From Faecousia sp. (GTDB lineage Bacteria; Bacillota; Clostridia; Oscillospirales; Oscillospiraceae), in contig JAZRRL010000019.1 of NCBI GenBank assembly GCA_045650665.1, positions 8,454 to 72,453 on the forward strand: a DNA stretch of 64,000 nucleotides, in the 5' to 3' direction. The notes beneath the pieces are model-generated. The model ran no database searches. It saw only the letters and a program-made list of their open reading frames with translations, and was not told the DNA's origin. The first letter of the stretch is position 1. Every line of letters starts with the position of its first letter. Of this stretch, positions 25,956 to 64,000 are shown in pieces. The translations under genes and the position numbers were made by a program.

Positions 25956-27635
25956 TTATTGATACAGAGAGTATATAACCTTCCAGGTTCTTGTTTCCAC
26001 ATAGTTATCCAGATTCCACGCATCACCCTGAACGGCATATTCATGCAAAACTCCTTCACAGCCGTCCACCGCTTCCATATTGTAGTGGTATCGGATGCGG
26101 TCGGAATCCTCGGGAATCTGGCTGATCAGCTCGCCAAAGTCTTCGTATTCAGCGCCCAGTGCATGCAGCACTGTGGGGAAGATATCTGCATGACTCAAGG
26201 GTGCCTGGCTGGTCTGGATGGGCACGGTAGCATCTGCGCCTGCTTCCTTCACCAAAAGCAGACAGGTTTGCGGTTTGGCAAAGTAACCCAGGTAATCGCC
26301 ATGATCTGCAGTGATGATGATGGTGGTATTGTCATAGACCCCCAGTTCCTTCAACTGCCGAATATATTCCTTGATGATCTTCATATCTCCACGCAAAGCC
26401 TGGGACAGCGTGACATTGGCCTGATATTCCATGTTTTCGTTAAAATCTGCGCCGGGGTGAGATCCAAACATATGGTAGAACCGGAATGCAGAATCATAGC
26501 TGCTATTCACAGACAGCTTTTCATTTTGAATGGTGGCATAGAATTCATGATCGTCATTTATGGGGGCAAAATCCTCTGTGCGAACCAGGGATTCATCGTT
26601 CACCGTTTCCGTCATATAGGCAAACATGCCCTTGAAAGCATAGGGCGCACCCCGGAAGCAGGACACCTTGAGCGTCTGCCCCAGGAATGCAAAAAGCTTA
26701 ATATCCGTAATATTATTGGAATCCATGGTCTTGTAGTTGTCTACATAGGGCATGGCATATTCCCCTATATATCTGGGATCGGTATACCAACGAATGTCTG
26801 TACCCTGCTTGTCAATGCGATCCATAAATTCATTATCCCGGAGGGAATTGTCAATATAGGTAGGATACGGAATATCATTGAAATATTTTTCACCGGACAG
26901 CATATAGGTAATCGCCGGGAAGGTGCGGGCATGGGTGTAAACCATATTGGGATAGTAGGTGAAGCCATCCAGACCGTCAAACAGCGCAGGGTCCTCCGCC
27001 AGCGCATCCTTTACAATGTGACCATCGCAATAGTCAATAGTAAAATACACAACATTGTTCTTCTCGGAAACCTCCAGGCGGCCTTCCTCTGAAAAATACA
27101 GATTCTTGGTATTGTGCACGGAACGGTCATAGGTCAGATACAAGGACATAAAGCCGGTCAGCTGCATGACAAACAGCGCAACGGCCAGATACTTTGTAAC
27201 TGTAATAAACACTTTTTCCTTTTTCAGCTTTTTGCAGATAAGCCAAGCGCCAAAAACTGCACTGAAAATAATAAGCCATATAAAGGCGTTGCCCAGTTTT
27301 GCACCTCTAGACACATTCAATGTGTTGCCATCAAGGGCAATCATCTGGCCATTGAACAACAGAAACTGCAGGTAGAAACACAGCGTTATACCAAGAACAC
27401 CGAGATTGACAAATTTCAAAACCTTAACAGGCAGAAAACTTACCAATACGGAAAAAATTACCGCAGCAACCAGAGCTGTCAGGCCAAGGATTACCACCGC
27501 CGCATCCAGAGAAAAGCGGAAATCCGTGGGATTGCCCAGGTAAACCTCAATGGGCGCAAAAAACAGCAGTGTAAACAAGCCTACGCCGCTGAAAATAAAT
27601 GCAGAAAGCAATTTTTTGAAATATTTTTTCTTCAT
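25956..27635 (-). CDS. Membrane-anchored sulfatase/LtaS-fold protein
   Basis: Five N-terminal TM segments; NVVYFTID, RTFPA (Thr nucleophile position), HMFGSHP, IITADHG. Confidence 0.78.
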   Translation of the reverse strand: MKKKYFKKLLSAFIFSGVGLFTLLFFAPIEVYLGNPTDFRFSLDAAVVILGLTALVAAVIFSVLVSFLPVKVLKFVNLGVLGITLCFYLQFLLFNGQMIALDGNTLNVSRGAKLGNAFIWLIIFSAVFGAWLICKKLKKEKVFITVTKYLAVALFVMQLTGFMSLYLTYDRSVHNTKNLYFSEEGRLEVSEKNNVVYFTIDYCDGHIVKDALAEDPALFDGLDGFTYYPNMVYTHARTFPAITYMLSGEKYFNDIPYPTYIDNSLRDNEFMDRIDKQGTDIRWYTDPRYIGEYAMPYVDNYKTMDSNNITDIKLFAFLGQTLKVSCFRGAPYAFKGMFAYMTETVNDESLVRTEDFAPINDDHEFYATIQNEKLSVNSSYDSAFRFYHMFGSHPGADFNENMEYQANVTLSQALRGDMKIIKEYIRQLKELGVYDNTTIIITADHGDYLGYFAKPQTCLLLVKEAGADATVPIQTSQAPLSHADIFPTVLHALGAEYEDFGELISQIPEDSDRIRYHYNMEAVDGCEGVLHEYAVQGDAWNLDNYVETRTWKVIYSLYQ

Positions 27636-27763
27636 TTTGTTCTCTCCGTTTCATAAGCTATTTCTCATTTTATTTGTATTTTACGCAATTGTCAATGCTG
27701 TTTGTAGACAAAAAGCGTCTTTCGTGCTATAATGCAGATATTCTGTAACTTGAAGGTGAAATC

Positions 27764-29863
27764 ATGGAATTTTTAGAGGGCATCATTGCCTATCCCTTAG
27801 GGTTTGTAATGAATATCTGCCATCGGTTGCTTCGCGATTACGGCATTGCCATCATTGCATTTACACTGGTTACCAAGTTCATTCTGCTCCCCCTTTCTGT
27901 TTGGGTGCAGAAAAACTCCATCAAAATGGTGCAGATGCAGCCGGCCATCAACCGGATCAAGGCCAAATTCTTTGGCGACGCGGACTCCATTGCAGATGAA
28001 GAAGCAAAGCTTTATAAACAGTATAAGTACAATCCTCTGGCCAGTATTTTCCCCCTGCTGGTGCAGATTTTACTGCTGATGGGTGTCGTAGCGGTTATTT
28101 ACAACCCCTTCGACTATCTGTTCCACATGGATGCAGCGGTGATCTCCGGCATCAATCAGGTGGCCAGCGAACTGTCCGGCATTCCGGTGGCGGATTCTTC
28201 CATTCAGCTGACTGCCATTGAGTACATCAAGAATCCTGAATATGCCGACGCTTTTGCAGCCCTTCCCGGCATCGAGACTTATTGGGAGCAGATCGTCAAT
28301 TTTGATCTGCGGTTCTTGGGTATCAATCTTTCCCACAATCCCAGCATCGTATGGGGCATTACCATCGTAGTCCCCTTGGTGGCCGGTCTTTCCGCCGCAT
28401 GGCTGTGCGTTGCCCAGAACAAGGAAAATGTCCTGCAGGCCGAGCAAAGCAAAGCCAACCAGTGGAGCATGTCCATTCTGTCCGTTGGTCTTTCTCTTTA
28501 CCTTGGCTTCTTCGTTCCTGCCGGCATTGCACTGTACTGGATTGCCAGTAATCTGTTTGCCATTGCGCAGCTGTATTTGCTGAATATGGCAATCCCGCCT
28601 AAGAAATATGTGGACTATGCAGAGCTGGAAGCAAGCCGGAAAGAGCTGGCACAGCTGAATGCAATGGTAGAAAAGAAAAAGCCCTTCCAGAAGGATGTAA
28701 ACGCCAAACGGGAACGGGCTGACTACAAGCGTTTCTTCTCCATTCGCAACAAGCACCTGGTATTTTACTCCGAGCGCAGCGGTTTCTACCGTTATTATAA
28801 AGAAATTATTGAGTTTATTTTGTCTAAGACCACCGTGGCTATCCATTACATCACCAATGATCCTGATGACATTGTTTTTGAGCTCGCTAAGGAACAGCCC
28901 CGGCTGAAACCCTACTACATCGGTGTAAAGAAGTGCATCACTTTGATGATGCGTATGGAGGCAGATGTGGTGGTCATGACCACCCCGGATCTGGATAATT
29001 TCTACCTGAAGCGTTCCTTAATGCAGAAGGATATCAACTACATCTATGTTCCCCATGACCCCGCCAGTATGCACATGGGCTTCCGGGAGCATTGCATGGA
29101 CCACTTTGATACTATCTTCTGCACCGGTCCGCATCTGGCTCAGGAAATCCGCGCCACGGAAAAGGTCTACGGCACCAAAGAAAAGGAACTGGTGGAGTTC
29201 GGTTATCCTTTGATTGAAAATCTCATCGCTTCCTGCGAACAGCTGGAGCCCAATACATCTTCCAGAAAAACCGTTCTCATTGCTCCCTCCTGGCAGGAAG
29301 ATAACCTGCTGGACAGCTGTGTGGATGACCTGATCAACAGCATTTACGGCGACGATTACAAGATCATCGTTCGTCCCCATCCGGAGTATGTGAAGCGCTA
29401 CAGCGGTAAATTGCAGATGCTGGTGGATCGTTATCAGGATAAGGTTGGCGAAGGTCTGGAATTTGAATTGGATTTCAGCACCAGCAAATCCGTCTACAGC
29501 TCCGATATTCTGATCACCGACTGGTCCGGTGTTGGCATTGAATTTGGCTTTGCCACACTGAAGCCCGTAATTTTCATCAATACCAAAATCAAACTGCAGA
29601 ATGAAAATTACAAAAATATCGGTCTGGAGCCTCAGGAGATTGCCCTGCGAAATGTTCTGGGCGTAGCCTTGGAAAAGGGCGAAATCCAGGAAAAATTTGC
29701 CGATACTGTCAAATCCCTCATGGGTAACGAAGACTTTAAAGAAAAAATCAAAGCCAAGCGGGAGGAATATTTCTATAATCTTGGTTCCGGCGGTGTGCAT
29801 GGTGCCAAGTATATTATCCGCTATTTGCTTGATAAGAAAAAAGAAAAGGAGAATACCAAATGA
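27764..29863 (+). CDS. YidC/Oxa1 insertase fused to CDP-glycerol glycerophosphotransferase (TagF/TagB-like) domain
   Basis: N-half YGIAIIAFTLVTK..LLPL, QPAINRIK, YNPLAS, GIALYWIASN; C-half IAPSW, RPHP, SDILITDWS. Confidence 0.82.
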   Translation: MEFLEGIIAYPLGFVMNICHRLLRDYGIAIIAFTLVTKFILLPLSVWVQKNSIKMVQMQPAINRIKAKFFGDADSIADEEAKLYKQYKYNPLASIFPLLVQILLLMGVVAVIYNPFDYLFHMDAAVISGINQVASELSGIPVADSSIQLTAIEYIKNPEYADAFAALPGIETYWEQIVNFDLRFLGINLSHNPSIVWGITIVVPLVAGLSAAWLCVAQNKENVLQAEQSKANQWSMSILSVGLSLYLGFFVPAGIALYWIASNLFAIAQLYLLNMAIPPKKYVDYAELEASRKELAQLNAMVEKKKPFQKDVNAKRERADYKRFFSIRNKHLVFYSERSGFYRYYKEIIEFILSKTTVAIHYITNDPDDIVFELAKEQPRLKPYYIGVKKCITLMMRMEADVVVMTTPDLDNFYLKRSLMQKDINYIYVPHDPASMHMGFREHCMDHFDTIFCTGPHLAQEIRATEKVYGTKEKELVEFGYPLIENLIASCEQLEPNTSSRKTVLIAPSWQEDNLLDSCVDDLINSIYGDDYKIIVRPHPEYVKRYSGKLQMLVDRYQDKVGEGLEFELDFSTSKSVYSSDILITDWSGVGIEFGFATLKPVIFINTKIKLQNENYKNIGLEPQEIALRNVLGVALEKGEIQEKFADTVKSLMGNEDFKEKIKAKREEYFYNLGSGGVHGAKYIIRYLLDKKKEKENTK

Positions 29864-30069
29864 TCAATCCCACTTTCTTGTATGTTGACCCCTCTGTTGT
29901 TACTTACGGCATTCAGGCCATTGCCGGTGTTGCCATTGCGGTTGGTGCAGTGGTTGCCATTGCCTGGAGAAAGGCCAAGAAAAAGGTCGCTAAGGCACTG
30001 AAGATCGAAGAAAACAGCAAAAAGGAAGAAGATGCCGAAATCACACTGGTGGAAGAGGATATTATCTGA
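29860..30069 (+). CDS. Small single-pass membrane protein with YVDP motif
   Basis: LYVDPS, hydrophobic helix, basic then acidic tail; 4-bp overlap with upstream gene. Confidence 0.7.
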   Translation: MINPTFLYVDPSVVTYGIQAIAGVAIAVGAVVAIAWRKAKKKVAKALKIEENSKKEEDAEITLVEEDII

Positions 30070-30101: not shown

Positions 30102-30389
30102 ATGTATGCCATTTACGTAAAATTCACTTGCCTGCCGGACAAGCGGGCAGCATTTATCCAAAAGGTTAAGGATACCGGTGTTCTGGAGGCGATTCGCGCC
30201 GAGGACGGCTGCATCCGCTACGACTATTATCTGTCGGAGAAGGATCCCTGCGAGCTATTGCTCATTGAGCAGTGGGAAACCCAGGAAAAGCAGCAGATTC
30301 ATATTGGCCAACCCCATATGGATACCCTTCGTTCCTTTAAGAACGACTACATCACCGATACAAAATTGGGTGAATTTGAACTGAAATAA
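30102..30389 (+). CDS. Antibiotic biosynthesis monooxygenase (ABM)/putative quinol monooxygenase
   Basis: IRAEDGCIRYD, LIEQWET...H...PH pattern. Confidence 0.85.
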   Translation: MYAIYVKFTCLPDKRAAFIQKVKDTGVLEAIRAEDGCIRYDYYLSEKDPCELLLIEQWETQEKQQIHIGQPHMDTLRSFKNDYITDTKLGEFELK

Positions 30390-30420
30390 AAAGCAGGGCG
30401 GAAATTCCGCCCTGCTTTTT
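30388..30420 (+). terminator. Terminator
   Basis: aaaaagcagggcgg-aaatt-ccgccctgcttttt. Confidence 0.8.
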
Positions 30421-31204: not shown

Positions 31205-32221
31205 TTATTCACCGTAACCCATGGGGTTGTTTTTCTGCCATCTCCAGGCATCCCGGCACATATCATCCAGGTTCTTGCCTGCCTTCCAGCCCAGCTTTTC
31301 TGCGCTCTTGGCGGGGTCTGCATAGCAGGTGGCCAAGTCGCCGGGGCGGCGGTCTGTGATCACATAAGGTACTGCAACCTCATTGACCTTCTCGAAGCTC
31401 TTGACCATATCCAGCACAGAGTAGCCGGTGCCGGTACCCAGATTGAATACCTCACAGCCAGCGTTGGCAATGACGAATTTCACAGCTGCCACATGGCCCT
31501 TGGCCAGGTCCACCACGTGAATGTAGTCGCGGACACCGGTGCCGTCATGGGTATCGTAGTCGTTGCCGAAAACACTCAGCTTTTCCCGACGGCCAACAGC
31601 CACCTGGGTGATGTAGGGCATCAGGTTATTGGGAATGCCACGGGGATCTTCACCGATACGGCCGCTGATGTGCGCGCCGATGGGATTAAAGTACCGCAGC
31701 AGCACAATGCCCCACTCCTTGTCAGCATTGGCCATGCCGGACAGAATCTGCTCGGTCATATACTTAGTCCAGCCGTAAGGATTGGTGCAGTTGCCGGTAA
31801 CGGAGGTTTCCTTCAGGGGCATTTCATTGCCTGCAGTATACACTGTTGCAGAGGAGGAAAAGATAATATTCTTCATGCCCACATCCTTCATCACCTTGGT
31901 CAGCACCAAAGTAGAATTCAGGTTGTTGTCGTAGTACTCCCAGGGCATAGCCACGGATTCGCCCACAGCCTTCAGACCGGCAAAGTGAATCACACAGCCG
32001 ATCTCATTTTCTGCGAAGATCTTGCGCAGCAGCGCCTCATCACGGACATCGCCCTCATAGAATTTCAGGGTCTTTCCGGTGATTTCCTGCACACGCTTCA
32101 AACTTTCGGGATTGGAATTACACAGATTGTCGATGACCACTACACCGTAACCGCTTTCCAGCAGTTCCACGCAGGTATGGGAGCCGATATAGCCAGCACC
32201 GCCTGTAACCAGAACGTTCAT
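31205..32221 (-). CDS. galE: UDP-glucose 4-epimerase
   Basis: GGAGYIGSH, HFAGLKAVGES, SSSATVY, YGWTK, LRYFNP. Confidence 0.97.
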   Translation of the reverse strand: MNVLVTGGAGYIGSHTCVELLESGYGVVVIDNLCNSNPESLKRVQEITGKTLKFYEGDVRDEALLRKIFAENEIGCVIHFAGLKAVGESVAMPWEYYDNNLNSTLVLTKVMKDVGMKNIIFSSSATVYTAGNEMPLKETSVTGNCTNPYGWTKYMTEQILSGMANADKEWGIVLLRYFNPIGAHISGRIGEDPRGIPNNLMPYITQVAVGRREKLSVFGNDYDTHDGTGVRDYIHVVDLAKGHVAAVKFVIANAGCEVFNLGTGTGYSVLDMVKSFEKVNEVAVPYVITDRRPGDLATCYADPAKSAEKLGWKAGKNLDDMCRDAWRWQKNNPMGYGE

Positions 32222-58426: not shown

Positions 58427-59431
58427 ATGAGAAGAAAACGCAGAAATTCCAATATGATTACCACCGTTGCCATTGTTATCTTTGCGGTGGTCGTATTTGC
58501 TATGGTGCCCGTGGTGGGTAACTGGATTTTGGATAAAATCGTCCCCTCCGAACCTGCTGTCAACAGCAGTGTTGCTTCCTCCGATTCTTCCACTGCCCCC
58601 ATCAGCACACCCCCTGCTTCCACCGGCGCACCGGATACAGAAGCGCCGATACTCGTAGGCGTAAAGAATCTGGAGGTTTATCTGGGTGGTACGATTTCTT
58701 ACAAGAACGGCGTTGCTGTTACCGACAATGCCGATCCCAAACCCAAGCTGGAAATCGACAATTCCAAGGTGGATCTGAACACCCCCGGCACCTATGAAGT
58801 TACCTACTGCGCAACCGATGCTTCCGGCAATAAGGCTGCCCCCATCACCGTCACCGTTACGGTGAAGGTAAAACCCGATAATTTCGTAGATCCTGAGGTA
58901 GTTTATGCCAAGGCAGATGCTATTCTTTCCCAGTTTATCCGTGACGACATGACCAACCAGGAAAAGGTAGAAGCTGTTTACGTCTGGACACGGCGCAGCG
59001 TCCACCTGACCTATGGCTCTGCCCCCAAGGGCTTTGACCACGAAAGCGCTGACTGGCTGCAGACCGCCTATCAATTCCTGAACAAGGAAGTTTCCAAGGG
59101 TGACTGTTTCTATTTCTTCGCTGTACAGAAATTGCTTCTGCAGCGGCTGAATATCCCCACCATTGACTGTGAAAAGATCTATGATGGCGACTCTCACCAC
59201 TACTGGCTGCTGGTCAGCATCGACGGTGGCAAGAGCTACTACCATTTCGACAATGTATGGTCCAACGCCCTGTGCTTGGTAACCGACGCAGAATTGGACG
59301 CCTTCTCTGCTGTGTTGGACAGCAATCCCTTCAATCGGGACAAGACCAAATACCCTGCTACACCCACTGAAAAGCTGCCCGCAAGCGAGCTTCCCTGGAA
59401 TGATTCCACTATCCTGGGCGCCAAGTACTGA
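58427..59431 (+). CDS. Membrane-anchored Ig-like (DUF5011-like) plus transglutaminase-like protein
   Basis: TM helix; DTEAPIL..TDNAD..VDLNTPGTYEVTY; GDC, HYW, HFD putative Cys-His-Asp triad. Confidence 0.78.
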   Translation: MRRKRRNSNMITTVAIVIFAVVVFAMVPVVGNWILDKIVPSEPAVNSSVASSDSSTAPISTPPASTGAPDTEAPILVGVKNLEVYLGGTISYKNGVAVTDNADPKPKLEIDNSKVDLNTPGTYEVTYCATDASGNKAAPITVTVTVKVKPDNFVDPEVVYAKADAILSQFIRDDMTNQEKVEAVYVWTRRSVHLTYGSAPKGFDHESADWLQTAYQFLNKEVSKGDCFYFFAVQKLLLQRLNIPTIDCEKIYDGDSHHYWLLVSIDGGKSYYHFDNVWSNALCLVTDAELDAFSAVLDSNPFNRDKTKYPATPTEKLPASELPWNDSTILGAKY

Positions 59432-59439
59432 GGTGTGCC

Positions 59440-60171
59440 ATGAGGGATAACAGAAAAATCTTGGGCGTGATTGGCGGCCTGGGCCCCATCGCAACTGCCC
59501 ATTTCATGGAACTGGTCATCAATATGACCGATGTGGATACCGATCAGGCACACCTGCCCATGATCGTGTACAACATGCCCTTTATTCCCGATCGCACCGC
59601 CTATATTCTGGACAATACCAAAGAAAATCCCCTGCCGAAAATGTTGGAGATTGGAAAGACCCTGCAGGAACAAGGTGTGGATTGCATTGCGATTCCGTGT
59701 GTCACTGCTCATTATTTTATGGATGCGCTGGAAGCACAGATCAATGTTCCGCTGATCAACGGTGTCCGGGAAACGGTTGCACATTTGAAGGAAAACGGTG
59801 TACAGAAGGTGGGTATTATGGCTACCGATGGCACCATTCGCTCTGGAATTTTCCACAAAGAACTGGAAAAGCAGGGCCTGCAGCCCATTGCCCCGCTGGC
59901 AGCTGCGCAAGCAGATGTCATGCATCTGATTTTTAACAATGTAAAGGCCGGCAAAGCTGCCGACATGGATCGTTTTGCTGCAGCCGCCGAGGATCTGCGC
60001 AAGCAGGGCGCTCAGGCCATTATTTTAGGCTGCACCGAGCTGTCCCTGATCAAGCGGGATCATAAAATTGGTGCCGGATTTGTGGATGCCATGGAAGTGC
60101 TGGCACGACAAAGTGTTCTTGCCTGCAACAAGCCTTTGAAAAAGGAATACGACTGTTTGATTACTGGCTAA
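59440..60171 (+). CDS. Aspartate/glutamate racemase family protein
   Basis: GVIGGLGP.AT, IPCVTAH, LGCTELS two-cysteine motifs. Confidence 0.92.
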   Translation: MRDNRKILGVIGGLGPIATAHFMELVINMTDVDTDQAHLPMIVYNMPFIPDRTAYILDNTKENPLPKMLEIGKTLQEQGVDCIAIPCVTAHYFMDALEAQINVPLINGVRETVAHLKENGVQKVGIMATDGTIRSGIFHKELEKQGLQPIAPLAAAQADVMHLIFNNVKAGKAADMDRFAAAAEDLRKQGAQAIILGCTELSLIKRDHKIGAGFVDAMEVLARQSVLACNKPLKKEYDCLITG

Positions 60172-60192
60172 AACCGAGAGGAGAAACCTGCT

Positions 60193-61704
60193 ATGCAGAC
60201 AAATATTTTGGAATATTTGGAAGGAACAGTGAAGCGCTGTCCGGATAAAGTTGCCTTTGCCAATGAGGAAATGGGTCTGACCTTCCGTGAGGTCTATGCG
60301 CAAGCCCGTTCCATCGGCACAAAACTGCATACAGAAGGTTTCTACCGTCAGCCCATTGTGGTGTTCATGCGCAAACATCCTACCACCTTGGCAGCATTTT
60401 TCGGTGCTATCTATGCCGGCTGTTACTATGTACCGCTGGATGATGAGATGCCCCGGCATCGTATTGAGCTGATCTTCCAGACGCTGGGTCCCGGCGCACT
60501 GATCTGCGATGAAACCACTGAAGCCATTGCCGGTGAGTTGAACTATCAGGGCAAGATCTTCCGCTATGAAGATTTGGCAAAGAGCGCTGCAGACGATGCG
60601 GTTCTTGCCGACATTCGGGAGAAGCAGCTGGATATCGACCCCATTTATATCGTGTTCACCTCCGGCTCTACCGGTGTGCCCAAGGGTGTGGTGGCTTGCC
60701 ATCGCAGTGTCATCGACTATGTGGAGCATCTGTGTGATGTGCTGAAATTTGACGAAAATTCTGTTTTCGGCAATCAGACACCGCTGTATTTTGACGCTTA
60801 CCTGAAAGAGGTTATCCCCACGCTGAAATATGGCGCAAAGACGGTGCTGATTCCCAAGCAGCTGTTCATGTTCCCCATCAAGCTGGTGGAATTTTTGAAC
60901 GAGCATAATATCAATACCCTCTGCTGGGTTGTGTCTGCGCTGACCATGATTTCCTCTTTCCGTACATTTGAAACGGTAAAGCCGGAGCATCTGCGCACCA
61001 TTGCCTTTGCCAGCGAAGTATTCCCCATCAAGCAATTTAAACTGTGGCGTGCGGCGCTGCCCAACGCCCGGTTCATCAACCTCTATGGACCTACAGAAAC
61101 CACCGGCATCTGCTGTTATTATGAGGTAGATCGGGAATTTTCCGAGGAGGAAACCCTGCCCGTGGGTCGTCCTTTCAAGAATACCCAGATCATTCTGTTG
61201 GATGAAAACAACAAAGTTCCTCCCGTGGGTCAACAGGGCGAGATCTGTGTCCGTGGCACCCGTCTGACCTTGGGTTACTACTGCAATCCTGAGAAAACAA
61301 GCGAAGCCTTTGTCCAGAACCCTCTGAACGATCTGTATCCGGAGCTGATTTATCGTACCGGTGATCTGGGTCGCTGGAATGAACGTGGCGAACTGGAATT
61401 TGCAGGCCGGAAGGATTATCAGATCAAGCACATGGGTCACCGCATCGAGCTGGGTGAAATTGAGGTCATCGTGAATATGCATCCTCAGGTTCGCTCTGCC
61501 TGCTGTATTTTTGACAACGAAAAGAAGAAGATCGTTCTGTTCTACACCGGCGACATCACTCTGGCAGAACTGACATCTTATATCAAAGGCAAGCTTCCCC
61601 GCTACATGATCCCCAACGTGACCAAACAGCTGGAGGAACTGCCCTACACCCCTAACGGAAAGATTGACCGCAACGGACTTAAAAATCTGTATGCCGGTAA
61701 ATAA
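60193..61704 (+). CDS. Stand-alone amino acid adenylation enzyme (DltA-like)
   Basis: FTSGSTGVPKG, NLYGPTET, YRTGD, GRKDYQIK.MGHRIELGEIE, NGKIDR. Confidence 0.93.
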   Translation: MQTNILEYLEGTVKRCPDKVAFANEEMGLTFREVYAQARSIGTKLHTEGFYRQPIVVFMRKHPTTLAAFFGAIYAGCYYVPLDDEMPRHRIELIFQTLGPGALICDETTEAIAGELNYQGKIFRYEDLAKSAADDAVLADIREKQLDIDPIYIVFTSGSTGVPKGVVACHRSVIDYVEHLCDVLKFDENSVFGNQTPLYFDAYLKEVIPTLKYGAKTVLIPKQLFMFPIKLVEFLNEHNINTLCWVVSALTMISSFRTFETVKPEHLRTIAFASEVFPIKQFKLWRAALPNARFINLYGPTETTGICCYYEVDREFSEEETLPVGRPFKNTQIILLDENNKVPPVGQQGEICVRGTRLTLGYYCNPEKTSEAFVQNPLNDLYPELIYRTGDLGRWNERGELEFAGRKDYQIKHMGHRIELGEIEVIVNMHPQVRSACCIFDNEKKKIVLFYTGDITLAELTSYIKGKLPRYMIPNVTKQLEELPYTPNGKIDRNGLKNLYAGK

Positions 61705-61716
61705 AGGAGAAAAAAC

Positions 61717-61944
61717 ATGGAAGCATTACTGAACATTCTGAACGAACTGCACCCTGAGGTGGATTTTGAAACCGCCACCGGTCTTATTGATGATAAGGTG
61801 CTGGATTCTTTTGATATTGTCACCATCGTGGCTGAGATCGACGCTGAGTACGATGTGCAGATTCCCGCTGTGGAGCTGACTCCCGAAAACTTTAACTCCG
61901 CGCAGGCATTGTATGCTCTGGTGGAAAGATTGATGGAAGAATAA
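61717..61944 (+). CDS. Acyl/aminoacyl carrier protein (DltC-like)
   Basis: 75 aa, acidic; LDSF phosphopantetheine site; LTPENFNS. Confidence 0.92.
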   Translation: MEALLNILNELHPEVDFETATGLIDDKVLDSFDIVTIVAEIDAEYDVQIPAVELTPENFNSAQALYALVERLMEE

Positions 61945-61945
61945 T

Positions 61946-63511
61946 ATGCAATTTACGTCCGTAAGTTTTCTGCTGTTTGCGGCGGTTGTCCTGCTGGGCA
62001 ACTATCTGCTGCCCAAAAAGGTGCGGTGGGTCTGGTTGCTGTGTGGCAGTATGTTCTTCTATGCTCTGGCAGGTGTGCAGTATTTTGCATTTATTTTGCT
62101 AACTGCTGCTTCTACCTACCTTGCGGGCATTGTTATGGGCAAAAATCTGGCCGCGCAGGATGCATTTCTTGCCGAAAACAAGCAGATCCTCACCCGGGAG
62201 GAGAAAAAGGAATATAAGGCAAAAGTCAAGGGCAAGAACCGCATCATTATGCTCATTTGCCTGGTGATCAACTTTGCCGTGCTGGCTCTGTGCAAATTTT
62301 TACTGGCAGAGCCCTTTGCATCCATGGCAAAAAACACCGGCTTGTCCTTTTTGACCTTGGGTCTGCCCTTGGGTATTTCTTTCTACATGTTCCAGAGCAT
62401 GGGCTATGTGATCGACATTTACCGTGGCACTGACAAGGCAGAAAAGAATCCCCTGAAGCTTTTGCTGTTTGTGTCCTTCTTCCCCCAGCTGATTCAGGGT
62501 CCTATCAGCCGTCACGCTGATCTGGCGCCCCAGCTGACTGAAGGCAAAGCCTTCAACGGTAAGGAATTTTCCTTTGGCCTGCAGCGCATGCTGTGGGGTT
62601 ATTTTAAGAAGATGGTCATTGCTGACCGGATTGCTGCAGCGGTGATTGCCCTGCGTGGTCCGGAATTTACCGGTGTTGGTTTTTTCCTGCTGACAGTTTT
62701 TTATGCAGTGCGGATCTATGCCGACTTTACCGGCGGTATCGACATGACCATCGGTCTTTCCCAATCTCTGGGTATCAAGCTGGAGGAGAACTTTGTAAGA
62801 CCTTTCTTCTCCAAGAATATTGCTGAATATTGGCGCCGCTGGCACATTAGCCTGAGCGTGTGGATGAAAAGCTACATCTTCTATCCCCTCTCCGTCAGTC
62901 AGCCCATTCTGAGTCTGAGCAAAAAGGCTCGCACCAAACTGGGCAACTTTGGCAAGCGTTTGCCCGTGTATGTGGCATCCATTGCAACTTGGTGTGTCAC
63001 CGGTATCTGGCACGGCATCACCCCCAATTTTATTTTGTGGGGCATGATGAACTGCTTTGTGATCGTGGTGTCTGAGGAACTGAATCCCCTCTACGAAAAA
63101 TTCCATAACCGCTTTGGCTGGAAAGAGAAAAAGTTGTACGGTGGCTTTGAAATGCTGCGGATGTTTGTTCTGATGAACCTGATCCGCATTGTGGACTTGT
63201 TCCCCGATGTGGGGGATTATTTCCGCCGCATGGGCTCTTTGGTGACCACCTTCAATTTCCATATTCTTTGGGACGGCACTATGATGAAGCTGGGTCTGAC
63301 CAGCCTGGATTACGGCATTTTGCTAGGCGGCATTGTTCTGATGTTTGCTGTGAGCCTATTCCAGGAAAAGAAGGGCAGCGTCCGGGAAGCACTGTGGGAC
63401 AAGCCTCTGCTTCGCTACATCCTTGTATTTACGCTTTTGGTAATCGTACTGCTTATGGGCAGCTACGGCATTGGCTATAATGCAAGCAGCTTTATCTACA
63501 ACCAATTCTAG
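61946..63511 (+). CDS. MBOAT family O-acyltransferase (DltB/AlgI-like)
   Basis: LPLGISFYMFQ, FFPQLIQGPI, GYFKK.VIAD, YADFTG, ENF..PF, WRRWHISL, GIWHG. Confidence 0.94.
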   Translation: MQFTSVSFLLFAAVVLLGNYLLPKKVRWVWLLCGSMFFYALAGVQYFAFILLTAASTYLAGIVMGKNLAAQDAFLAENKQILTREEKKEYKAKVKGKNRIIMLICLVINFAVLALCKFLLAEPFASMAKNTGLSFLTLGLPLGISFYMFQSMGYVIDIYRGTDKAEKNPLKLLLFVSFFPQLIQGPISRHADLAPQLTEGKAFNGKEFSFGLQRMLWGYFKKMVIADRIAAAVIALRGPEFTGVGFFLLTVFYAVRIYADFTGGIDMTIGLSQSLGIKLEENFVRPFFSKNIAEYWRRWHISLSVWMKSYIFYPLSVSQPILSLSKKARTKLGNFGKRLPVYVASIATWCVTGIWHGITPNFILWGMMNCFVIVVSEELNPLYEKFHNRFGWKEKKLYGGFEMLRMFVLMNLIRIVDLFPDVGDYFRRMGSLVTTFNFHILWDGTMMKLGLTSLDYGILLGGIVLMFAVSLFQEKKGSVREALWDKPLLRYILVFTLLVIVLLMGSYGIGYNASSFIYNQF

Positions 63512-63519
63512 GAGAGAAT

Positions 63520-64000
63520 ATGAAGAAGAAAATCGCTTTATTGTCCTCTGTTCTGGTGATCGCAGGCATTCTTTTGTACTGTCTGCAGGCGCTTTTGATG
63601 CCCAAGTATATGGTGGGCAAGCACAAAGAAGGCGCACTCATTGCCGAGTATTACAAAAATGCCGGTAATAACGATGTCATCTTCATCGGTGACTGTGAGG
63701 TTTACGAAAACTTTTCCCCCATTACCATGTGGGAAAATTACGGCATCACCTCTTACATCCGGGGCAGCGCACAGCAGCTGATCTGGCAGAGCTACTACCT
63801 GATGGAAGAAACCTTCCGGTATGAAACGCCCAAGGTGATGGTGTTCAACGTACTTTCCATGAAGTACGATACTCCCGAAAGTCCCAAGGAGAAAAATCAG
63901 CGGGAAGCCTACAACCGCATGACATTGGACGGCATGCGTTGGTCCAAGTCCAAATGGAATTCCATTTTGGCCTCCATGTCCAAGGAGGAACGGGAAAATA
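63520..64000 (+). CDS. SGNH/DltD-AlgJ-like protein, 3' end outside window
   Basis: Own translation: N-terminal TM then DVIFIGDCEVYENFSP..MWENYGITSY.RGS..Q; open to window end. Confidence 0.75.
   Translation, partial: MKKKIALLSSVLVIAGILLYCLQALLMPKYMVGKHKEGALIAEYYKNAGNNDVIFIGDCEVYENFSPITMWENYGITSYIRGSAQQLIWQSYYLMEETFRYETPKVMVFNVLSMKYDTPESPKEKNQREAYNRMTLDGMRWSKSKWNSILASMSKEEREN

Follow-up and report, generated by a model that had tools for sequence, protein, structure and literature searches.

YidC is regarded as a dedicated protein insertase, and the classical clients that it handles alone (Pf3 coat, M13 procoat and MifM) share an N-out/C-in topology, with an N-tail that is short and acidic and basic residues clustered behind the transmembrane (TM) helix. 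Among the enzymes with lipid donors, LtaS uses phosphatidylglycerol and EptA uses phosphatidylethanolamine, and in DltX, a very small membrane protein, a Tyr serves as carrier of the group being transferred. Enzymes of the TagF family require membrane tethering, and the polymerases of this family bear variable N-terminal domains (PMC10901376). In TarL, the invariant H433 contacts the α-phosphate of the donor, and the catalytic base is another invariant His, located in the N-terminal Rossmann half (TarL H300, TagF H444) (PMC10901376). Here we describe a gene of Faecousia sp. that joins a YidC core to a TagF-type domain in one open reading frame (ORF). It occupies positions 27764-29863 on the forward strand of a 64,000-nucleotide stretch of contig JAZRRL010000019.1 (assembly GCA_045650665.1), which we refer to as the window.

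The best explanation of the sequence data is that the ORF encodes a working two-domain membrane protein, the predicted core of an accessory envelope-decoration module. The fusion, a small protein encoded directly downstream of it, a divergently encoded LtaS-like enzyme and a set of linked genes probably form one envelope-decoration assembly line. All the parts come from known families. The combination, namely an insertase core that is hard-wired to a cytoplasmic phosphotransferase and accompanied by a dedicated mini-protein and an LtaS-like ectoenzyme, is undescribed. An earlier note on this DNA, made from the sequence alone, knew of no described function for such a fusion, and our literature search on YidC together with glycerophosphotransferase or TagF likewise found no description of a YidC-TagF fusion.

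The YidC-TagF fusion and its two halves

The ORF is one unbroken, ATG-started frame of 699 aa. Its product matches PF02096 (60KD_IMP) at residues 26-274 (E 6.6e-32; 111 bits vs. a cut-off of 35) and PF04464 (Glyphos_transf) at residues 333-608 (E 1.8e-12; 47 bits vs. a cut-off of 22), while TIGR03592 (yidC_oxa1_cterm) reaches 108 bits, its cut-off being 84. An AlphaFold2 model, for which 22 family members served as input, has a mean predicted local distance difference test score (pLDDT) of 88.4. The frame, both profile collections, the model and the fold matches given below all bear out what the earlier note had read from the letters, i.e. one continuous protein made of YidC and a TagF-type domain.

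The N-terminal half is laid out as an interface helix, TM1, the C1 hairpin, TM2, a helical P2 insert (residues 114-195) and TM3-TM5, with modelled helices at residues 26-40, 42-68, 73-86, 95-113, 198-221, 230-250 and 253-276. Foldseek matches this half to E. coli YidC (6AL2) and to B. halodurans YidC2 (3WO7; TM-score 0.69 on the target), and its five-TM fold with a cytoplasmic C1 hairpin is superposable on the solved YidC structures. Lys38 in TM1 (codon 27875-27877) aligns with the groove Arg of these proteins (Arg72 of B. halodurans YidC2, Arg366 of E. coli YidC). Conservation was counted in 22 fusions with 36-55% identity. Position 38 is Lys in 19 and Arg in 3 of them, a conservative swap for the canonical Arg that keeps the positive charge. 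Other polar positions are N51 (20/22), Q101 (21/22), Q218 (20/22) and Y258 (21/22), and W259 and N263 are present in all 22. The N-terminal half thus belongs to the YidC/Oxa1/Alb3 family by profile, fold and groove charge, and insertase activity is predicted for it. It resembles the YidC2/SpoIIIJ/Oxa1 insertases in its 5-TM fold, its C1 hairpin and a polar groove to which TM1 contributes a positive charge. Unlike these, the fusion carries Lys rather than Arg as groove charge, has a 370-aa enzyme in place of the ribosome-binding C-tail, lies outside the rnpA-yidD-yidC-jag operon as an accessory copy, and is a predicted insertase.

A canonical yidC near rnpA and jag, which the earlier note had proposed looking for, is present elsewhere in the genome: a housekeeping YidC of 396 aa is encoded in an rnpA-yidD-yidC-jag operon (contig C20, locus L001 1165-2355, minus strand), and therefore the fusion is an extra copy. 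Both proteins have the helical P2-loop insert. The housekeeping protein has Gly-Gly where the fusion has Ser-Asn263, and a Gln at the hallmark groove Arg position ('AILVQIVLLP'). Compared with Lys38 of the fusion, this means that the accessory copy retains a positive groove charge that is absent from the essential copy.

The conservation of the groove bears on a simpler possibility, in which the YidC half is an anchor only. The recycled 5-TM fold would then hold the TagF-like domain beside the LtaS-like enzyme, handling neither protein nor lipid, and would take over the tethering for which free TagF-family enzymes have amphipathic helices and N-domains. The need of TagF-family enzymes for a tether and the varied N-terminal domains of their polymerases (PMC10901376) fit this possibility, as does the connector-like position of YidC between both catalytic domains in the triple fusions described below. 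However, a passive anchor should not retain a polar groove such as the one seen at positions 38 (Lys or Arg in 22/22), 101, 218, 259 and 263. Furthermore, the fusions retain the C1 hairpin, conservation of the YidC core almost equals that of the catalytic domain (mean pairwise identity 0.39 vs. 0.44 for the GT-B domain), and the near-obligatory, client-like small partner is left unaccounted for. We consider an anchor-only role doubtful, and take the YidC half in what follows as a putative insertase.

A basic helical linker connects the two halves and is comparable to the amphipathic helix of TarL that joins its N-domain to the GT-B domain; its residues D320 and F324 are conserved in the fusion family. 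For the C-terminal half, Foldseek places TagF first (3L7L, chain 3L7L_D; E 1e-9), and two capsule polymerases of TagF type, 8QOY and 8A0C, come next. Residues H431 (codon 29054-29056), K416-R417, A507-P508-S509, R537-x-H539-P540 (His539, codon 29378-29380), D586-W587-S588 and E593 are invariant in all 22 fusions. In order to map these residues onto solved enzymes by sequence, phmmer and the domain profile were used; both missed the TagF structures (3L7x), and the sole match was TarL (8VA1). In this alignment, 'RPHP' with H539 is opposite 'KMHP' with H433 of TarL, and 'ITDWS' is opposite 'ISDYSS'. Within the N-terminal Rossmann half of the GT-B domain, no His other than H431 is invariant; from its position and invariance, H431 is the likely counterpart of the catalytic base. 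The fusion thus has the two histidines that mark the PF04464 family (TagF H444/H584; TarL H300/H433), and both histidines, which the earlier note had singled out for checking, are invariant.

Four features are common to the domain and to TagF/TarL/TagB/TarF (PF04464; 3L7L, 8VA1), Cps3D and Bcs3: the GT-B fold, a pair of invariant histidines, the donor motif 'D-[WY]-S' and, ahead of the GT-B domain, a basic helix. It differs from TagF/TarL/TagB/TarF in being tethered by an integral YidC core rather than by amphipathic helices; where a polymerase-type extra N-terminal domain was looked for in the fusion, the N-terminal part is YidC. The fusion is the sole PF04464 gene of its genome, and the nearest relatives of its C-terminal domain are all YidC fusions or fragments of such.

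Two further concerns of the earlier note, that the fusion might be a strain-specific read-through or that one of the domains might be degenerate, do not hold: relatives occur in at least 587 species genomes, and both halves are intact in the 22 fusions.

Distribution and conserved partners

An exhaustive search gave 637 representatives (50% clustering, E≤1e-30), a number in which YidC-only and TagF-only relatives are counted; the full fusion is present in about 45 of 150 listed representatives. At least 587 species-representative genomes encode a relative of the fusion. The best 80 of them all carry full fusions and are gut and rumen Clostridia, namely Acutalibacteraceae, Oscillospiraceae, Ruminococcus, Lachnospiraceae, Christensenellaceae and Acetivibrionales, including the cultured Waltera hominis CLA-AA-H183. 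At the level of the order, about 13 of the 301 genomes sampled carry the fusion; they belong to 7 families without clear pattern, and a class-level sample of 399 genomes adds 6 more carriers. A genome of another family (G013) has a copy that is 80% identical, and a genome of the same genus (G235) has none. The distribution is patchy. NCBI names the relatives plainly 'membrane protein insertase YidC', a label that our analysis corrects. Since YidC is hard-wired to a phosphotransferase, and at times to an LtaS-like enzyme as well, in hundreds of Clostridia species, abilities of the YidC groove other than protein insertion become directly testable.

The ATG of the gene for the small partner overlaps the TGA of the fusion (ATGA), and its AAGGAG lies 8 nt upstream, within the 3' end of the fusion; the two are predicted to be translationally coupled. 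No Pfam or NCBIfam model matches the 69-aa product. A family hidden Markov model (HMM) finds the small protein in 77 of the 78 loci with enough sequence, and in 72 it is encoded directly downstream of the fusion. The consensus is Y-[IV]-D-P-[ST], a TM helix, W-R-K-A-K-K-K and then L-x-I-D-E-N-x-x-K-E-V-E. The copy in the window has an 'LYVDPS' tail, the TM helix, 'WRKAKKK' and an acidic 'IEENSKKEED' tail, and is predicted to be N-out/C-in. In roughly half of the copies, a signal peptide ending in A-x-A stands right before the Tyr, and the remaining ones, including that of the window, have just 2-13 residues ahead of it. By its topology and acidic N-tail, the protein resembles the YidC-only clients Pf3 coat, M13 procoat and MifM, and it is a candidate specific substrate of the YidC half. 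The suggestion in the earlier note of an insertase dedicated to one substrate thereby gains a concrete candidate, encoded by a gene that the note had not seen.

The resemblance to MifM also raises the possibility of an insertion sensor, in which the peptide from the small ORF would arrest its own ribosome by means of an acidic motif near the C-terminus, with release upon insertion by the YidC half, and would so regulate the genes downstream. An N-out TM helix followed, about 15-25 residues past it, by a conserved acidic segment ('IDENanKEVE') would suit such a role. However, in 72 of the 78 loci the small ORF lies downstream of the fusion, the genes after it vary or are unrelated, and one genome (G115) encodes a single fused protein in which the small protein precedes the LtaS-like one, as expected of a subunit and not of a leader peptide. 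We regard a sensor as extremely improbable, and keep to the small protein as a putative client.

The LtaS-like partner begins with about 5 TM helices, and the remainder is an extracytoplasmic domain of the alkaline-phosphatase superfamily. Within the family, D201, T238 and D444-H445 do not vary, and H388 and H393 hardly do. With the family profile, LtaS of S. aureus (2W5R; 1.7e-10) and of Listeria (4UOO) outrank true sulfatases. The protein thus shows the marks of an LtaS-type enzyme (a multi-TM region, a fold outside the membrane, a Thr nucleophile and Asp/His metal ligands), which are also those of LtaP, GacH, OpgB, EptA/MCR-1 and PptA; what sets it apart from the LtaS/EptA group is its linkage to, and at times fusion with, YidC-TagF. 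It is related to LtaS only distantly, and is a predicted ectoenzyme. In its genome it is the only membrane sulfatase-family gene, and among 65 informative loci 55 have the LtaS-like gene next to the fusion. Together with the small protein, this answers the question of the earlier note as to whether the neighbourhood is conserved.

YidC-TagF is in some cases joined to the sulfatase-fold enzyme in a single protein, and this occurs in both orders (P0126/P0127; P0128/P0129/P0151). Every natural fusion order, including that of the small protein with the LtaS-like protein, is topologically consistent with a TagF-like domain inside and an LtaS-like domain outside the membrane. In three Lachnospiraceae loci (L078, L086 and L088; Waltera hominis, Acetatifactor), 2-3 LtaS-like paralogues in tandem lie downstream of the fusion and the small protein, in place of one upstream copy. 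A protein of 861 aa that joins signal peptidase I (S26) to YidC-TagF (P0132; metagenomic, on 2 contigs) was set aside as evidence for procoat-type processing, since this architecture is a singleton and hence an anecdote only.

This inside-to-outside arrangement would also suit a lipid conduit, in which the head group is loaded on an inner-leaflet lipid (diacylglycerol or a glycolipid), scrambled outward by the YidC groove, and used as donor by the LtaS-like enzyme. The natural fusions match such a sequence of inside synthesis, transmembrane groove and outside transfer, the groove residues are conserved, and LtaS-family enzymes are generally known to take lipid donors. Furthermore, scrambling of glycerophospholipids has been observed in vitro with purified E. 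coli YidC, and in simulations with B. subtilis MisCB (PMC11047089). For YidC, the experimental demonstration of scrambling is so far confined to in vitro work. On the other hand, general scrambling by the housekeeping YidC or by other proteins could suffice, and the small partner is left without explanation. A conduit is in our view unlikely, and insertion of the small partner remains the preferred role of the YidC half.

The positions of the features are collected in Table 1. The fusion and the LtaS-like gene diverge from a region with two promoter-like sites placed back to back. On the side of the fusion, a near-consensus promoter (TAGACA-17-TGCTATAAT with TG) is found at 27705-27733 on the forward strand; on the side of the LtaS-like gene, TTGACA-17-TAAAAT lies on the opposite strand at 27695-27667. 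Both match 11 of 12 positions and are the top two of the scanned region. The fusion has the ribosome-binding site GAAGGTG 5 nt before its start. A gene for an ABM (antibiotic-biosynthesis-monooxygenase-like) protein starts 33 bp past the small-protein gene and is probably the last gene of the fusion transcript; a hairpin terminator closes the unit of fusion, small protein and ABM. The ABM gene is absent from the recurrent neighbour clusters of the related loci, and is not a conserved member of the module.

Table 1. Features of the YidC-TagF locus, in window coordinates.
Feature	Position	Strand	Basis
LtaS-like partner, 559 aa, divergent from the fusion	25956..27635	-	Pfam Sulfatase, ~32 bits over part of the domain
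Divergent control region, 128 bp	27636..27763	.	back-to-back promoter-like sites
YidC/Oxa1 insertase core (predicted), residues 1-283	27764..28612	+	profile matches, model, fold match
Basic helical linker, residues 284-329, including 'KRERADYKRFF'	28613..28750	+	model helices 285-303, 307-326
Cytoplasmic TagF-family GT-B phosphotransferase domain (predicted), residues 330-699, and stop codon	28751..29863	+	PF04464; TagF fold
Small partner, 69 aa, single span	29860..30069	+	ORF; family HMM; ATGA overlap with fusion stop
ABM-domain gene, 95 aa	30102..30389	+	Pfam ABM match; own ribosome-binding site read
Intrinsic-terminator hairpin, bidirectional	30388..30420	.	15-bp stem, 8 GC pairs, flanking A and T runs

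Donor supply and the likely chemistry

The Pfam name of the C-terminal domain, like the earlier note, implies transfer of glycerol phosphate. TagD (TIGR01518), which would supply cytidine diphosphate (CDP)-glycerol, has no match in 6 of 11 fusion genomes tested, including the present one (1.70 Mb, 94% complete), and exceeds the cut-off in only 2 of the 11 (G013 and G236). CDP-glycerol made by TagD is thus ruled out as the general donor. Since TagD is missing from these 6 genomes, 'glycerophosphotransferase' is a doubtful name and probably a misnomer for the fusion clade. What stands of that claim in the earlier note is the membership in the TagF family; the glycerol-phosphate chemistry is not supported, given the lack of TagD and the linked LicC-type enzyme and AEP-type importer described below. 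Our analysis accordingly corrects a second database label, a Pfam name implying a chemistry that the genomes mostly cannot supply.

In the genome of the window, there is a single IspD, and the other proteins of cytidylyltransferase fold look like CoaD, RibF, CitC-like, TmcAL-like and NadD-like proteins. A 536-aa ORF on contig C29 (45273-46883) combines a NadD-like nucleotidyltransferase domain with a C-terminal domain of about 300 aa, family unassigned.

Among 80 related loci, 27 have a gene adjacent to the fusion that encodes a 298-aa winged helix-turn-helix (wHTH)-nucleotidyltransferase of LicC type (c3), and 13-18 have genes for an ATP-binding cassette (ABC) importer. The best solved relative of c3 is LicC, the cytidine triphosphate (CTP):phosphocholine cytidylyltransferase (1JYK; 1.3e-30, near full length), followed by PntC (6PD1; 2.5e-12), which is specific for 2-aminoethylphosphonate (AEP). 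The top NCBIfam matches of the importer are PhnS2, PhnT2 and PhnU2 ('putative 2-aminoethylphosphonate ABC transporter'), which are strong, yet under the equivalog cut-offs. In one locus (L120), a co-directional string encodes the LtaS-like enzyme, YidC, the TagF-like part, the small protein, a substrate-binding protein, an ATPase, a permease and the wHTH-LicC enzyme. On that single metagenomic contig (4206-6242), gene calling gives one gene for YidC (260 aa) and another for the TagF-like part (413 aa), with 12 nt between them, which is either a natural split or an assembly error. The genome of the window has an orthologue of c3 (69% identity) at the start of contig C11 (2322-3197), followed by a binding protein and an ATPase, and the importer permease is at the start of contig C46. 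Orthologues of c3 occur in 15 of 301 order genomes, and four of these (G000, G013, G075 and G278) carry the fusions closest to that of the window; this co-occurrence is only suggestive, related genomes not being independent. A TagF-like gene that stands by itself is found in G127, at a distance of about 1.3 kb from c3.

In surface tailoring, phosphocholine is activated by LicC and AEP by PntC (PMC6697681). In the genome of the window, neither phosphoenolpyruvate (PEP) mutase (PF13714) nor choline kinase (PF01633) has a match; endogenous phosphonate synthesis is ruled out for lack of PEP mutase. The LicC-type enzyme would thus most simply act on an imported compound that is already phosphorylated or phosphonylated, and the importer genes beside c3 fit this reading. 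The module is comparable to the Lic (LicB/A/C/D, TacF) and Pnt (PntC) pathways in importing a precursor, activating it by a LicC/PntC-family enzyme, which is linked to the fusion in the 27 loci given above, and attaching it to the envelope. It differs in that no LicD-type transferase (none among the recurrent neighbours of the related loci), LicA kinase or PEP mutase was found, the transferase being TagF-like and fused to YidC, with an extra LtaS-like ectoenzyme. For this reason, we do not file the module as Lic or Pnt; the likeness is confined to the activation step.

A TagF-fold enzyme with a head group of this type has been reported. In C. difficile, the TagF-like FtaD transfers N-methyl-phosphothreonine from a CDP conjugate onto flagellin modified with O-linked N-acetylglucosamine (O-GlcNAc) in vitro (bioRxiv 10.64898/2026.02.12.704994). 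It is a CDP-N-methylthreonine:GlcNAc phosphotransferase of a flagellin-glycan pathway, a free-standing enzyme that was assayed as purified recombinant protein and acts on cytoplasmic O-GlcNAc-flagellin (bioRxiv 10.64898/2026.02.12.704994). There is thus a precedent for a TagF-fold enzyme that uses an amine-bearing head group activated with CDP or cytidine monophosphate (CMP). FtaD of the ftaABCD genes and the fusion, the latter by prediction, would have in common a TagF-like enzyme with a nucleotidyltransferase, an amine-bearing phospho-head group, a CDP conjugate and a non-teichoic acceptor. Unlike the fusion, FtaD lacks a YidC domain and is accompanied by neither an LtaS-like enzyme nor a small membrane protein, and the likeness drawn here concerns predicted function.

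These findings also bear on the possibility that the fusion is a classical teichoic-acid enzyme, which would prime or polymerise poly(glycerol phosphate) from CDP-glycerol, with the LtaS-like protein as an ordinary lipoteichoic acid (LTA) synthase. The PF04464 match, TagF as the top fold match, LtaS as the best solved relative of the partner, and TagD in G013 and G236 are in its favour. However, most fusion carriers lack a CDP-glycerol supply, as seen from the 6 genomes without a TagD-like match, and in contrast to TagF/TarL/TagB/TarF the linked activating enzymes are LicC-type or amino-alcohol-making. No TagO, TagA or TagGH-type exporter gene is among the recurrent neighbours of the related loci. 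Nor does the dlt-like operon of the window (58427-64000) co-occur with the fusion. We rejected this operon as a linked element because close orthologues of its MBOAT gene are present in 11 order genomes, none of which is a fusion carrier, and G013 has no orthologue of the MBOAT gene despite its 80%-identical fusion. A classical teichoic-acid role is very unlikely. The donor is more likely a CMP- or CDP-activated amine-bearing phosphate or phosphonate than CDP-glycerol.

Two loci have other activating genes. In L020 (5074-7919), a nucleoside triphosphate (NTP)-transferase is fused to a CobD-like pyridoxal phosphate (PLP) enzyme of threonine-phosphate-decarboxylase type, next to an OCD/mu-crystallin gene; the locus had been a candidate for carrying PntC with an AEP transaminase, and was rejected as such on finding this CobD-like fusion and the OCD-family gene. 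In L119 (6486-8902), a class-V aminotransferase is found with a TagD-fold cytidylyltransferase fused to a GFO/IDH/MocA oxidoreductase. The genes of L020 and L119 suggest CDP-amino-alcohol donors, so far undescribed.

A proposed order of events and its alternatives

Taken as a whole, the module could be an inside-to-outside machine for head-group decoration, in which the YidC half inserts or docks the small partner; we put this complete chain forward tentatively, at slightly less than an even chance. In a first step, an amine-bearing phosphate or phosphonate (e.g. AEP or phosphocholine) would be imported, or made by variable neighbour genes elsewhere, and converted with CTP into a CMP or CDP conjugate. 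The TagF-like domain, held at the inner membrane face by the YidC core and the basic linker, would then move the phospho-head group to the hydroxyl of a membrane-bound acceptor. The YidC half would insert and then dock the small partner, such that the inner and outer catalytic parts are gathered around one transmembrane unit; this step is modelled on the short N-tail with an invariant Tyr and Asp, which is of the Pf3-coat/procoat/MifM type, and the Asp would suit the groove-charge mechanism proposed for YidC clients. Finally, the LtaS-like enzyme would perform the outer-face phosphotransfer to the final envelope acceptor.

If so, the module points to an undescribed surface decoration of abundant gut anaerobes by small zwitterionic phosphate or phosphonate groups, possibly scavenged AEP or phosphocholine. 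In other bacteria, such groups are important for surface charge and for recognition by the host, as well as for phage adsorption and resistance to antimicrobial peptides.

In its division into a cytoplasmic step, a small membrane component and an extracellular transferase, the module is comparable to CsbB-GtcA-YfhO, which glycosylates LTA, and to DltA/C-DltB-DltX-DltD. Unlike in these systems, there is no GtcA- or MOP-type flippase and no MBOAT protein in the module, and all the protein families differ. Only hypothetically, and by analogy, the small protein might act as a DltX-like carrier, in which case it would be the first protein-borne phosphodiester shuttle, analogous to D-alanyl-DltX. 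A related possibility is that the YidC groove now serves a new purpose, as the membrane-crossing part of a relay in which the phospho-head group is loaded on a carrier, passes the groove and is handed over to the LtaS-like enzyme. The carrier at the cytoplasmic mouth of the groove would be the invariant Tyr (or Ser/Thr) in the N-tail of the small protein, or a lipid. We give such a relay only a small chance; were it true, it would be the first protein insertase to have evolved into a dedicated translocase of small molecules or carriers.

Several observations weigh against the proposed chain of events. The LtaS-like partner is missing from about 15% of the loci, and six Ruminococcus-type loci without it have a PGA_cap-family gene in the same divergent position. 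No more than about a third of the loci have the LicC-type and importer genes beside the fusion, and LicC-type orthologues co-occur with just 4 of the 13 order-level fusion genomes. The donor clearly varies between carriers, as seen from TagD in G013 and G236, the CobD-like fusion in L020 and the gene set of L119. In addition, the small protein may just be a subunit and not a client of YidC, the conserved polar residues of YidC could serve only folding, and the protein with signal peptidase I (P0132) is a singleton architecture.

The PGA_cap genes (L087, L090, L097, L104, L108 and L113) encode proteins of 414-454 aa with a CapA-like metallophosphoesterase fold. They directly adjoin the fusion in 5 of the 6 loci; in L090, a 487-aa gene lies between. 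The PGA_cap gene may be a non-homologous replacement of the outer-face enzyme.

As for the genomic setting, in the same-genus genome without a fusion (G235) the ppdK orthologue abuts a galE-like gene, whose counterpart in the window is at 31205-32221, with an inversion. From this, the region from about 6.6 to 31.2 kb of the window (about 25 kb, including the module) is variable; the inversion precludes a clean empty-site comparison, so that 'variable region' is as far as the term goes. Besides the YidC-TagF module, this part of the window (~6600-31200) holds a cassette stack, a VWA module, WYL/DUF2779 genes and an ArgZ-like gene.

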